A DNA stretch of 64,000 bases, taken from the NCBI RefSeq assembly GCF_046105845.1, contig NZ_CP151004.1. One strand, written 5' to 3'. Positions within the stretch are counted from its first letter, which is position 1. Every line of letters starts with the position of its first letter. Below the pieces are notes generated by a model, which was given only the letters and a program-made list of their open reading frames with translations, was not told the DNA's origin and made no database searches. This DNA comes from Escherichia coli (GTDB taxonomy: Bacteria > Pseudomonadota > Gammaproteobacteria > Enterobacterales > Enterobacteriaceae). Made by a program: the position numbers and the translations under genes. Shown here piece after piece: positions 2,202 through 7,628 of the stretch.

Positions 2202-5200
2202 TTACCACTGAATACCGGCACCGAGCGCGGCGGAGTATTCACCCTGGCTATTGGTACTACCTTGTAATTTGTAGACCCAACGACCATTGGCGCTCACCAT
2301 CGACACACCTAAAGCAACAGCCGATTCACCGTTGTAAGTACCGCCACCAATAGAGGCCATGCTGGCACCTGGAGTGTAAGCCTGCGGCAGACCGGTCATT
2401 GCCATTGCAGAAGCGATACCACCGCTCAACTTGCTTTCGGTTTTGGACAGTTTGTTATCCATCTCAACCATCCGCTGATCGGTATATTGCTTCGTTTCCT
2501 GCACGCTTTGCTTCAGCTGCGCATAGTTCACTGCGTCGTTGTTGTTCACGCCAGCGGAGACGTTGCTGATGCGAGTCGTACCGCCATTACCACCACCGAG
2601 AGTGATGTTGCTGTAGTCTACAGAGCCATCAGCTTTGGTGTCGTAACGAACGCCGCCTGCCTCAGAAGACTTCAGCTGCGAAACGTTAACCGCATCGGTG
2701 GCATTAACACCTGCAGCAACGTTGGTGATACGACGCTGGTTGGTAGAAGAACCCACAGAGATGGTATTTTCTTCGTTGGCCACGGAGCCTGTACCCAGCG
2801 CGACGCTGTTGTCAGCGGCAGCAATGGAACCAGAACCAATCGCAACACTATCTTTACCCTGCGCGTTGGCATCTACGCCATCGGTGTTGGTCTTGAAGTA
2901 CTTGGTGCTACCGGTGGTTACAATGTCGCCAATACCGTTTTCGATATTAGTAACGCGAGTATCCAGATTAGTGACCTGATTGTTCAGGTTAGTAATGCTC
3001 TGGGTATTTTGCGCTACGCGCTCATCAGTGACTTTCAACTGACCTACGTTAACCGCATCGGTATCCGCTGAACCAGCCGCGACGTTGGTGATCTGACGTT
3101 GACCGTCTTCACTACCGACAGAGAATTCACCGACAGAATTCTGCGGTGCGTCCATGTTGTAGGCGGTGTAATCAGTTTGCGCACCACGGGTGGTCTGGGA
3201 ACCACTACCCATCGCAATACTGTTTGCATGATTTGCACTCGCGTTGCTACCGATAGCAATACCGTTGATTGCATCAGTTAACACCAGAGTGTTCAGGCCA
3301 ATACCGATCCCTGCATCACCATTAACAATGGTTTTCGCACCCATTGCCAGCGAGTCTTCACCGACAGCCAGTGAATCTTCTTCCGTTGAATTAGCATGGA
3401 AGTATTTGGACGGTGTCGTTGCTACGGCACCAATCGCATTCTGCAACTGGCGAACCGTAACGGCGTCATGGGCTTCGGAACCATCGGCGACGTTGATGAT
3501 TTGACGATATTTACCGTCATCACCAATCGACAATGCACCGAGCAGTTCGCCATCAGTGGTGTTATAACCAATGACTACGCCATCTTCGGTTACGCTGGTA
3601 TCACGGGAGCCCTGAAGGATGACACGGTTAGATACAGAACTGCTGCCCAGAGCAATTCCAGATTCAATAGTACTGCTGCTGTTCTGTCCAATTGCCACAC
3701 TGCTATCGCCTGATGCGACGGAGTTATAACCTACAGCTGTAGCGCCCACACCCGTAGCACTGGCATCCGCAAAGACTAAACCGCTGTCGTTAGTACGCAC
3801 ATAGTTGATACCTTCACCGTTCTCTGTGATATAGCTTTCGCTGGTATCACCGGCAATATTCTGGATCAACATATTTGTGGCATTTAACTGGGAGCCGTTA
3901 ACCGCGTCGGTGCTGGTTTCGTTAATCTGACCATTGGCTACGTTGGTAATGACACTGGCTTTGCCATCATGGCTAGCGTTAAACGCACCGTTTTCACCTG
4001 CGGTAGCGTCCCAAAGCAAGGCGTTATCCAGGGTTGAGTCAATTGCATTCATCGCATCGCCGACGTTGGTATAGTCGGTATCAGCAATTGTGTAAGTCGG
4101 TGCGCTGATGCTGCCGTCAGAATTCACCGCTGCACCACCACCAAGAGCCTCAGCGACGGAACTGCTAACGCCGTGGAGTTGAGCCCCATTAACCGCATCG
4201 GTGCTGGTGTCAGAAATTGTTCCTGCCGCGACGTTAGTTATTTTGCTGGCACTGCCATCGTGGCTGGCACTGAAGGCACCATTTTCACCTGCGGTAGCAT
4301 CCCACAGCATCGCATCGTCAAGAGTGGTATCAAGCGCGTTTAGGGCATCGCCGACATTATCGTAATCAGTGTTAGCAATGGTGTACGTTGGTGCACTGAT
4401 GCTGCCATCCGTATTCACGCCAGCACCACCACCCAGAACATCGACAACAGAGTTGCTTACATCGTAAAGTTGTGAGCCATTCACAGCATCAGAGCTAGAG
4501 TCAGAGACTGCACCGTCTGCGACGTTAGTGATTACGCTGGCGGTAGAACCGTGTTTGGCACTAAATGCGCCAGTCGTGCTATCCCAAAGGAGGGCATCGC
4601 CGAGTGAGTCGCTAAGTGAGGTGTTAATGGCGTCAAGTGCAGCACCAACATTGGTGTAATCATTACCATCAATGTTATAGGTAGGGCCGCTAAATACGCC
4701 AGAATCGCTCACAGTGGCACCACCACCAAGATAGGTGGCGATCGAACTGCTCAACCCATGAAGCTGACTGCCATTAATGGCATCAGTACTGGTGGATGAT
4801 ACAGTCCCTGCCAGGACATTGGTGATTTTGCTGGCATCTTTGTTTGCACCATGCGCTGCACTGAATGCAGTGCCATCCCAAAGCAGCGCATCCTGTTCCA
4901 GGGCGTCAATGGATGTATTCAGAGTATTAATGCTGGCGGTGTTAGCAGCAATATTGGTGGTATTGGTCGCCACATTCTCGTTAGTCGCATTCAGCTGCGC
5001 ACCGTTAACTGCGTCCGTACTATTTTCAGATAAAGTACCTGCTTTAACGTTGGTAATAGTGCTGGCTGTTTCTGTACCGTGCGCGGCGCTATACGCTGTT
5101 CCGTTCCAGAGCATTGCATCCTGCTCAAGGGTATCGATCGACGTATTGAGAGTATTAATATTGGCGGTGTTGGTCGCAATGTTAGCCGTATTGCTGGCGA

Positions 5201-7628
5201 TATTGGTGGTGTTGGTTGCCACGTTATCGTTAGTGGCTTTCAGTTGCGAGCCATTAACCGCGTCAGTACTGTCATCCGAAAGGGTGCCAGCTTTCACGTT
5301 AGTGATGGTGCTGGTGGTTTCCGTTCCATGAGCGGCGTTGAATGCAGTGCCGTTCCAGAGCATAGCATCCTGCTCAAGAGCATCCACAGACGTGTTCAGG
5401 CTATTTATGCTTGTGGTGTTAGCCGCGATATTAGTGGTATTGGTAGCAATGTTGGCAGTGTTGCCTGCAATATTGCTGGTGTTGGTAGCAATGTTGGCAG
5501 TGTTATCGGCAATATTGCTGGTATTGGTAGCAATGTTGGCAGTGTTATCGGCAATATTACTGGTGTTAGTTGCAATGTTAGCCGTGTTGCTGGCGATATT
5601 GGTGGTGTTGGTTGCCACGTTATCGTTAGTGGCTTTCAGTTGCGAGCCATTAACCGCGTCAGTACTGTCATCCGAAAGGGTGCCAGCTTTCACGTTAGTG
5701 ATGGTGCTGGTGGTTTCCGTTCCATGAGCGGCGTTGAATGCAGTGCCGTTCCAGAGCATAGCATCCTGCTCAAGAGCATCCACAGACGTGTTCAGGCTAT
5801 TTATGCTTGTGGTGTTAGCCGCGATATTAGTGGTATTGGTAGCAATGTTGGCAGTGTTATCCGCAATATTGCTGGTGTTGGTAGCAATGTTGGCAGTGTT
5901 ATCGGCAATATTGCTGGTATTAGTTGCAATGTTAGCCGTGTTGCTGGCGATATTGGTGGTGTTGGTCGCCACGTTATCGTTAGTGTCTTTCAGTTGCGAG
6001 CCATTAACCGCGTCAGTACTGTCATCAGAAAGGGTGCCAGCTTTCACGTTAGTGATGGTGCTGGTGGTGTCCGTACCATGAGCGGCGTTGAATGCAGTGC
6101 CATTCCAGAGCAAGGCATCATCTTTAAGGTCGCCAACAGTATCTGTCAAGTTCGTGATATTGGTGGTGTTGGTAGCAATATTTGCAGTGTTAGTTGCAAT
6201 ATTTCCGGTATTGGTAGCGATATTGGTGGTATTGGTCTCAACATCATCATTGGTGGCTTTCAGTTGTGAACCGTTAACCGCGTCTTTACTGGAATCTGAA
6301 ACTGCGCCATCCGCCACATCGGTGATTACGCTGGCAGTTGAGCTACCATGAGCGGCGCTGTATTGGCCTTTGGTTTGGTTCCATTGCAGGGTGTTTTCAT
6401 CGAGTACAGTGAGCGCATCGCCAACGTTACTTTTGGTTCCATTTTTTAATGTGTACTTTGGTGCGTTAACAGTACCGTCGTCAACGTTTACCGATGCCCC
6501 CCCACCAAGCCGTTTTGCTACCGAATCGCTGATGGCATAAAGCTGTGAGCCATTAATGGCATCGTGGCTGTCAGCCTTGATCGTGCCATTTTTCACATTA
6601 ACGATCTTGCGTTGTAATGAGTCATTGCCGACAGAAACGCTATCGTCTTGATCCGCAACAGAACCTGCACCCAGTGCGACAGAGTTAATACCTCTGGCAT
6701 CGGTATTACTACCAAGCGCAAGACTATTATCGCCAGTTACAACACTGGCCTTGCCTAAGGCAATGGCGTTTACGCCACTCGACTGGCTACCATTACCCAG
6801 AGCGATAGCATCAATGCCATCAGCCTTGTTACCCTGACCAATAGCAATTGCACTATCTGCCAGAGCCTGGCTGCCATTACCCAACGCGATAGTATTGACT
6901 TTATCTGCAAGGCTCGCGGAACCCAACGCAATGCTATTCACCCCTTTTGCATGCGCTGTATTGCCGATAGCGGTTGCATTTTCAGCTGCTTCGCTATCTG
7001 CTCCCAGCGCCATAGCATAATCTTGTGACGCATTGGCCTTATCACCGAGACCGATGCTCATAATACCAGCCGCCTTAGCGGCATTTCCTAGCGCAATGGC
7101 GTTTGCTCCATCTGCTCTGGAGCTATCCCCCATCGCTATAGACAATTTACCCATTGCCTTGGAATAACGACCGAGGGCCATTGAGTATTGACCTAATGAA
7201 TATGAAGATGCACCCAGCGCGATACTTCTATCGCCTTCTGATATTGCACTAACCCCGAAGGCCATTGATGCACCACCCTTAGCATGGGTTTTTGACCCGA
7301 TGGCAGAGCTATATTGGCCTTCTGCTATAGCGTCATAACCCACAGCAGTACTGGCACCACTGGTGTTCATAAAAGTATTTGCTTTCGCCCCTTTGCCTAT
7401 AGCAACCCAGCCGTCGCCAGTTGATCCACCACCGTAATCAACACCCTGACCGTTGTCATTCCCGGCATTCGCAAGCGCCCCAAACGATGACAACAACCCA
7501 CCTGCAACCACAGCAGAAATTAACAGCTTACTGCGCCCGGATTTCTTGCCACGGCTTTTTGCCGTTTCGCTGGTAACAGTATAATTCCCTGTCGCAGGGT
7601 TCCAGATAACTTTAAATATTTTATTCAT
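2202..7628 (-). CDS. upaG: trimeric autotransporter adhesin (UpaG/EhaG/SadA-like), 1808 aa
   Basis: N-terminus [21 protein letters not shown] is an extended signal peptide typical of autotransporters; C-terminus ...[27 protein letters not shown] is a YadA-type anchor; body is Ser/Thr/Asn/Gly/Ala-rich with SVAIG/NSIALG head motifs and many stalk repeats. Confidence 0.85.
4780..6350. repeat. tandem coding repeats in the adhesin stalk (modules of about 240-400 bp built from 42-bp units)
   Basis: Near-identical DNA blocks, e.g. 5338-5727 vs 5734-6081; repeated gcaatgttggcagtgttatcggcaatattgctggt units encoding NT(A/S/T)NIA(T/S/D); opposite-strand ORFs 5338, 5734, 6088 are near-identical, reflecting the repeats. 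Confidence 0.85.

Follow-up and report, generated by a model that had tools for sequence, protein, structure and literature searches.

A tandem-repeat array in the stalk of a trimeric autotransporter adhesin at the SadA/UpaG/EhaG locus of Escherichia coli, and its in-frame length variants

Stalks of Cha, a trimeric autotransporter of the Haemophilus cryptic genospecies, differ in how many tandem peptide repeats they contain, and this number has been reported to alter exposure of the head, adhesion and biofilm formation (summary in PMC9704523). In BadA of Bartonella henselae, recombination duplicates, deletes and reshuffles neck and stalk modules from isolate to isolate, and these repeats defeated short-read sequencing (PMC8859334). 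Here we describe a repeat array in a 64,000-nucleotide stretch of Escherichia coli DNA (contig NZ_CP151004.1, assembly GCF_046105845.1; hereafter the window), which carries on its minus strand, at positions 2202–7628, a complete gene for a trimeric autotransporter adhesin (TAA) of 1808 aa. We consider it very probable that this array belongs to the stalk of an adhesin at the SadA/UpaG/EhaG locus, that its modules and 42-bp units are gained and lost in frame, and that the window allele represents a five-module expansion.

The window locus departs from both described systems in several respects. Its species and repeat sequence are not those of Cha, and the effect seen in Cha is experimental, whereas the present locus offers natural allelic variation alone. 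BadA has many more modules and is accompanied by flanking badA-like pseudogenes serving as a reservoir; in contrast, changes at the window locus stay entirely within the gene, and the flanks of the E. coli adhesin locus showed no paralogous donor. A further likeness is to the Periscope Proteins (Rib, SasG, Sgo_0707), in which near-identical stalk repeats vary in copy number between close strains and thereby alter projection of the distal domain (PMC9704523, PMC8201768). That class, however, consists of monomeric, independently folding repeats and explicitly excludes TAAs (PMC9704523), while the repeats of the window adhesin are the coiled coils and connectors of an obligate trimer; without a monomeric single-chain stalk, the window adhesin falls outside the class. 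It does show the properties of a variable-number tandem repeat in a surface-protein stalk, with high identity between copies and a copy number that varies while the rest of the gene stays unchanged.

The nearest likeness is to SadA, UpaG and EhaG, with which the window adhesin shares its position between lldP and yibL/mtlR, a sadB-like lipoprotein gene upstream, and a domain order of ESPR, YadA-like head, FGG, DALL2 connector with long neck and N@d coiled coil (Asn at heptad position d), second head and anchor. Within this group the array itself differs. With Cn denoting a coiled coil of n residues, EhaG has three modules (C49 C42 C35) and reads 'ALKWD' instead of 'ALLWD', UpaG has five short modules (three C35 and two C28), and in an ST131 allele the necks have next to no coiled coil between them (C7 C7). 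The five modules of the window adhesin, unlike those of EhaG and UpaG, include two whose N@d coiled coils are very long (77 and 91 aa).

Anatomy of the stalk array

Delimited in the protein at conserved 'xLLW' and 'DAVNGSQL' motifs, five tandem modules (M1 to M5; 276, 354, 396, 249 and 228 bp) are encoded by positions 4905–6407 (1503 bp) and make up the membrane-distal part of the adhesin stalk. M1 (6132–6407, minus strand as are all the modules; aa 408–499, 92 aa) consists of a DALL-like connector, a long neck and a 49-aa coiled coil with four N@d heptads. In the other modules a DALL2 connector and a long neck precede coiled coils of 77 aa with eight N@d heptads (M2, 5778–6131, aa 500–617, 118 aa), 91 aa with ten (M3, 5382–5777, aa 618–749, 132 aa), 42 aa with three (M4, 5133–5381, aa 750–832, 83 aa) and 35 aa with two (M5, 4905–5132, aa 833–908, 76 aa). 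Coiled-coil length thus ranges from 5 to 13 heptads across the array, and most of these heptads carry the polar N@d motif.

Assignment of these elements follows solved structures. The start of each module, made of shared stretches of 19 and 22 residues, aligns to the DALL2 connector and long neck of SadA, and the motifs seen in M1–M5 are those given in Table 2 of PMC4786415. M3 matched the SadA fragments 3ZMF, 2YO2 and 2YNZ with E values between 3e-10 and 1.5e-9, the alignments spanning DALLW and a 10-residue motif, and matched the N@d fragments 2WPR and 2WPQ at approximately E 1e-5. When heptad register was set from the long neck as tabulated in the same Table 2, M1–M5 were found to contain 27 heptads of the form [I/V]xxNTxx, with Ile or Val at a, Asn at d and Thr at e. 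In the N@d layers of TAA stalks, known from SadA fragments, the core Asn residues at d coordinate a central anion (PMC4786415), and a role in holding the passenger in an export-competent state has been suggested for the motif (PMC6173795). The window coiled coils fit this pattern and differ from it in nothing essential. Their runs of eight and ten consecutive N@d heptads are long; N@d runs of up to 19 were reportedly described by Hartmann et al. in 2009.

Three approaches agreed that tandem repeats are present in the stalk, as a reading made from the letters of the window without database searches (the sequence-only reading) had proposed. Tandem Repeats Finder returned periods of 21, 42, 354 and 396 bp within 5166–6236, the 396-bp period comprising 2.0 copies with 95% match. 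A separate repeat search recovered five module copies spaced at 228, 249, 396 and 354(+270) bp. Finally, self-comparison of 2202–7628 with 24-mers gave 431 repeated pairs at offsets of 396, 354, 750, 42, 312 and 84 bp, compared with none in five shuffles and 11 in the remaining 56 kb of the window; the off-diagonal matches whose absence would have spoken against a repeat were therefore found within the array. The proposal of at least five modules of ~ 240–400 bp held, with five modules of 228–396 bp. Its interval of 4780–6350 missed 57 bp of M1 and extended 125 bp into the neighbouring repeat family described below.

Near-perfect identity, also proposed, applies to part of the array. At the DNA level M2 and M3 were 95.2% identical, M3 and M4 95.6%, and M2 and M4 90.0%, whereas M1 and M5 were just 74–78% identical to the others. 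The longest exact repeat in the adhesin gene measures 272 bp and lies in two direct copies at an offset of 396 bp (5191–5462 and 5587–5858). Within the coiled coils, conservation of the 42-bp period (84–87%) exceeded that of the 21-bp period (~ 62%), as scored by Tandem Repeats Finder. Tracts of 42-bp units were delimited in the coiled coil of M3 (5416–5612, 4.7 copies, 84% match) and in that of M2 (5812–5966, 3.7 copies). Because NTSNIAD and NTANIAT heptads alternate, the DNA unit of 42 bp corresponds to two heptads; the sequence-only reading was correct about the DNA unit, but the structural unit is the 7-residue heptad, encoded by 21 bp.

Directly C-terminal of the array lies an older repeat family, M6–M8 (4038–4904, minus strand; 98, 94 and 97 aa), in which a DALL connector and neck are combined with an FGG-like 'LGGGA' insert. 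Its period is ~ 291 bp, with ~ 71% DNA identity between copies and exact runs of no more than 17 bp.

The stop-free repeat has as its by-product five open reading frames (ORFs) on the plus strand over the array, open for 87–396 codons, which an ORF caller could mis-annotate: one of 396 aa (5079–6269) and shorter ones at 4777–5331, 5338–5727, 5734–6081 and 6088–6351. The example of identical DNA originally given for the repeat, 5338–5727 against 5734–6081, matches two of them. As DNA the example is sound (340 of 348 positions identical, with a single 42-bp gap), but its coordinates are the limits of spurious plus-strand frames, and the gene that carries the array is on the minus strand. That these frames, among them 5079–6269, are real genes owning the repeat has next to no credence with us in spite of their length. 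Their translations are of low complexity, rich in Leu, Val and Ala or in Gly, Val, Ile and Ser, and mirror the sense repeat; four Pfam families score above cut-off in the minus-strand product, which also has solved homologues; and E. coli annotations show the minus-strand gene alone in this position.

No insertion sequence (IS) or transfer RNA features were present in this part of the window, and a mobile-element origin of the array is unsupported.

In-frame allelic series and rearrangement of the array

Orthologous arrays were compared in the 120 top-ranking protein clusters retrieved by searching 5.8 billion sequences and, for array span, in the 60 best-scoring of 5426 RefSeq complete E. coli genomes together with an even sample down the ranking. 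Module number ranged from two to five, four being the most common, in agreement with the expectation that recombinational gain and loss would vary stalk length and be visible as differences in copy number among orthologues. Among complete genomes, WG5 carries two modules (C49 C35) and strain 127 three (C49 C42 C35, as in EhaG). Four-module arrays were found in NT1F25 (C49 C63 C42 C35), A29 (C49 C77 C42 C35), TUM9757 (C49 C91 C42 C35), EC09 (C49 C105 C42 C35) and C10 (C49 C91 C70 C35). The window allele has five (C49 C77 C91 C42 C35), and in other five-module alleles the long pair is C91-C77 or C91-C91.

All coiled-coil lengths were multiples of 7 aa (28, 35, 42, 49, 63, 70, 77, 91 and 105). 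In the 120 clusters the second module had a coiled coil of 77, 91 or 105 aa and M1 one of 49 or 28 aa; across related alleles the second-module coiled coil formed a series of 63, 77, 91 and 105 aa, or 9, 11, 13 and 15 heptads. Alignment of array DNA showed that the window allele exceeds four-module alleles by exactly one in-frame block of 354 bp at M2. A29 additionally lacks one further 42-bp unit, at 5475–5516, where the longest exact run at the 42-bp offset (35 bp) also lies. Every array difference was in frame and a multiple of 21 bp.

The array was also the fast-changing part of the gene. In five groups of proteins that were 100% identical over ~ 1300 residues outside the array, between two and eight array architectures were present, which means that the array changes faster than amino acids are substituted elsewhere in the gene. 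In contrast to M1–M5, the copy number of M6–M8 was constant in all close alleles examined; the diverged state of that family fits a rearrangement process that depends on homology.

Since a repeat tract lies inside the gene of a surface adhesin, and since badA has been suggested to undergo slipped-strand mispairing (PMC8859334), an on/off phase-variation switch like those of simple-sequence contingency loci had to be considered. It is improbable in the extreme. The units are all multiples of 3 bp (21, 42 and 228–396 bp), and ~ 140 alleles differing in the array were in frame without exception, so that the locus does not behave as a phase-variable contingency locus. Where the gene is inactivated, array change is not responsible: in AR_0369 an IS1 insertion separates the end of the signal peptide from the rest of the gene, and the reading frame of 504239 is interrupted by a stop at codon 353, in the head. 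These two inactivated alleles indicate that the adhesin is dispensable in some lineages.

Traces of the rearrangements appear within individual modules. The first 189 nt of M3 showed no differences from M4 and 14 from M2, whereas its last 81 nt showed none from M2 and 24 from M4. M3 is thus a chimera of the 5' part of M4 and the 3' end of M2, as unequal crossing-over predicts. The second module of WG5, judged from the protein, joins a start of the long-module type ('KDTNDN') to a coiled coil of the M5 type; this module and the loss of the long module in strain 127 look like the expected deletion products of the same kind of misalignment. Exact repeats at module offset measured 272 bp in the window allele and P0002 and 518 bp in P0003, but no more than 50 bp in four-module alleles. 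The confinement of long exact repeats to five-module alleles marks the duplications as recent. Five-module alleles occur on two head-domain backgrounds, and duplications of this kind therefore either have more than one origin or were transferred by recombination.

Given these observations, we propose that the combination of very similar modules with 42-bp double-heptad units would make the array act as an in-frame minisatellite. Whole modules would be gained or lost when the DALL-neck segments of adjacent modules misalign and recombine homologously, and two heptads per event would come or go by slippage or recombination between 42-bp units, slippage being the natural candidate for the 42-bp steps. 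If the DALL-neck segment of M4 paired with that of a long module (Mx) on the other chromatid, a crossover would yield M1-Mx-(M4 5'/Mx 3')-M4-M5. The window allele would be such a five-module expansion, its M3 being a crossover product in which the start of M4 runs on into the coiled-coil tail of a long module. Each such change would preserve both reading frame and heptad register.

An assembler-expanded fifth module in what is truly a four-module gene would account for the window array as an artefact. The 272-bp exact repeat exceeds typical short reads. Array spans in the 60 best matches were 1149, 1107, 888, 753, 718 and 634 bp, and in the even sample they went down to 504 bp; a 1503-bp array was found neither among these 60 of the 5426 complete genomes nor in the even ranking sample. 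The order of the long pair also differs between otherwise near-identical proteins, as mis-phasing could produce. Nevertheless, we judge an artefact very unlikely, because the five-module form recurs in independent assemblies, with at least 15 distinct protein sequences. The C49-C77-C91-C42-C35 protein of the window was found on a 4.74-Mb contig, a protein 98% identical to it and of the same architecture on three European Nucleotide Archive (ENA) contigs, and another 1808-aa protein of the same 90%-identity cluster on a 4.80-Mb NCBI contig. The related C91-C91 form, on a different head background, had 11 sequence variants, of which one lies on a 5.18-Mb scaffold. Moreover, assemblers usually collapse tandem repeats rather than expand them, and the extra block is exactly in frame, with a clean chimeric structure.

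Among 1808-aa proteins of one 90%-identity cluster, P0122 and P0123 differ from P0002 and P0121 in whether the long pair is ordered C77-C91 or C91-C77. This may reflect genuine movement of a 42-bp unit or an ambiguity of short-read phasing across the 272-bp repeat. The warning that such arrays collapse or expand in short-read assemblies was accordingly reasonable, though weakly tested by these data: the five-module form is present both in chromosome-scale contigs and in SPAdes-type contigs, while the C77-C91 order differs between near-identical alleles.

Several points weigh against the in-frame gain-and-loss reading as a whole. The copy number of the window allele is taken from the assembly, and part of the allelic diversity comes from short-read drafts, which are able to collapse or mis-phase repeats, possibly including the order of the C77-C91 pair. 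As to mechanism, RecA-dependent unequal crossing-over, replication slippage and inter-allelic recombination after horizontal transfer are inseparable from sequence alone. Finally, any functional effect of the length of the window allele is argued from Cha and from the masking of SadA taken up below.

The array is not the only part of the gene in which length varies. The head also varies by whole repeats, with a 14-aa duplication in P0048 and P0052 and a 28-aa duplication in P0066. The first neck lies 21 aa earlier in P0125 and 55 aa earlier in P0131, and the first neck motif of the window adhesin is 16 aa farther from the N-terminus than that of TUM9757. A 28-aa difference between EhaG of O26 and O157 is placed before the first array module by neck positions.

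The adhesin gene and its locus

The window adhesin (P0001; ORF 2202–7628, minus strand) is a 100% match to WP_409023686.1 in NCBI, named 'YadA-like family protein'. No NCBIfam model scored above cut-off for it, and its closest alleles are annotated just as 'YadA-like family protein'. Four Pfam families above cut-off bear out the adhesin-stalk assignment. All domains are read from the minus strand. An extended signal peptide (7464–7628, aa 1–55) ends in ...FGALANA at a putative cleavage site, with an ESPR match at aa 1–48 (56.6 bits against a cut-off of 25). The N-terminal YadA-like head of 14-residue repeats occupies aa 56–355 (6564–7463) and is bounded by the first neck motif at aa 356; YadA_head scored 183 bits over 14 stretches of the adhesin head regions. 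YadA_stalk scored 428 bits, likewise in 14 stretches, and motif parsing recognised 13 neck motifs. The C-terminal YadA-type membrane anchor (2205–2387, aa 1748–1808) scored 68.3 bits against a cut-off of 22.7 for YadA_anchor, and also matched the anchor structures of Hia and YadA. The closest solved relatives were GCN4-fused fragments of the Salmonella SadA fibre: 2YO0 (E 3e-137), 2YO3, 2YO2, 2YNZ and 3ZMF. With a signal peptide, a passenger of head, neck and coiled coil, and a C-terminal barrel anchor of the YadA type, the protein has the make-up of a trimeric autotransporter (type Vc) and is predicted to form a homotrimer at the cell surface.

Directly upstream of the adhesin lies a gene for a 227-aa lipoprotein of the SadB/DUF3251 type (7672–8355, minus strand), identified from its ORF and from counterparts that E. 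coli genomes annotate as 'DUF3251 domain-containing protein' or 'SadB/YajI family lipoprotein'. Such lipoproteins are partners of this adhesin family, and export of SadA is assisted by SadB (PMC6173795). The flanking genes lldP (128–1810; NCBIfam equivalog, 1199 bits) and mtlR (9766–10353) place the adhesin at an lldP-sadB-yibL-mtlR locus whose gene order is the same in genomes with an annotated ehaG or upaG. Its position is that of ehaG in O26/O157 strains and of upaG in one uropathogenic strain, and identity to EhaG and UpaG was 83% and 75% overall, rising to ~ 90% over the C-terminal 600 aa. By locus and similarity, the gene can be placed as an allele in the SadA/UpaG/EhaG positional-orthologue group.

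Elsewhere in the window, the mtl operon was 98.5–99.7% identical to that of almost all of the 5426 complete genomes, which identifies the window as E. coli. Over mtlA-mtlD-mtlR (10353–13509) most E. coli genomes aligned in two pieces and were ~ 134 bp longer (3291 versus 3157 bp), which suggests a small intergenic insertion/deletion polymorphism, possibly involving a repetitive extragenic palindrome (REP)-type element. Two features scored above their Rfam gathering scores, the sok antitoxin RNA (59425–59576, plus strand, 119 bits) and the cspA thermoregulator 5' untranslated region (59859–60287, minus strand, 491 bits). The small RNA ES036 (40632–40674, 38.9 bits) was barely over the Rfam threshold. 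All three are ordinary E. coli chromosome features and unrelated to the repeat array.

Consequences of stalk length

At a coiled-coil rise of ~ 0.148 nm per residue, computed lengths are ~ 11.4 nm for a coiled coil of 77 aa and ~ 13.5 nm for one of 91 aa. Each added heptad would place the head ~ 1 nm farther from the cell surface, and an extra long module with its connector ~ 15 nm farther. Because reading frame and heptad register are kept, the fibre should still fold and, we infer, still be exported. SadA is masked by lipopolysaccharide (LPS) and fimbriae (PMC7247748), and the reach of the stalk should matter for that reason. By analogy with Cha, a change in array length may then alter adhesion.

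Whether such differences matter to the bacterium can be argued in either direction. The length polymorphism may be selectively neutral, arising simply because a modular protein is encoded by repetitive DNA, with no tuning role and with alleles that drift, and we regard this as possible, if somewhat less than probable. One study reportedly argues for non-adaptive evolution of TAAs in another group (PMC7688925), the gene is dispensable in some strains (AR_0369 and 504239, as above), and the length variants at this locus are known here from their sequences. Against neutrality, frame and heptad register are kept in every variant, as would be expected if purifying selection maintained a working fibre; repeat number in Cha is reported to change adhesion (PMC9704523); and the masking of SadA implies that reach should matter. 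All of this is compatible with neutrality of the length differences themselves.

At the other extreme, the array could tune stalk length quickly and in quantised steps, as a functional equivalent of a Periscope Protein that matches the reach of the head to the thickness of a lineage's own O-antigen or capsule. Here 42-bp double heptads and modules of 250–400 bp would be repeatedly gained and lost, and particular lineages would have acquired the rare five-module form as an adaptation. We consider such tuning unlikely: the evidence that bears on it is that in-frame length changes have recurred, and rapidly, on two allele backgrounds, and selection or a link to surface polysaccharide goes beyond that evidence.

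For the adhesin family, in-frame gain and loss of stalk modules at this locus introduces no new principle, since repeat-driven length variation of TAA stalks is established for Cha and BadA. The window array is ordinary for such proteins, and the heptad-step allelic series, even if undescribed at this locus, illustrates a known principle. In practice, short-read assemblies are not a trustworthy source of gene length at this locus, and stalks of two to five modules have to be allowed for when adhesins of the UpaG/EhaG type are used in allele typing or studied as vaccine antigens. The natural series of 9, 11, 13 and 15 heptads and of 2, 3, 4 and 5 modules, carried by otherwise identical proteins, could be used to relate fibre length to adhesion through O-antigen or capsule.

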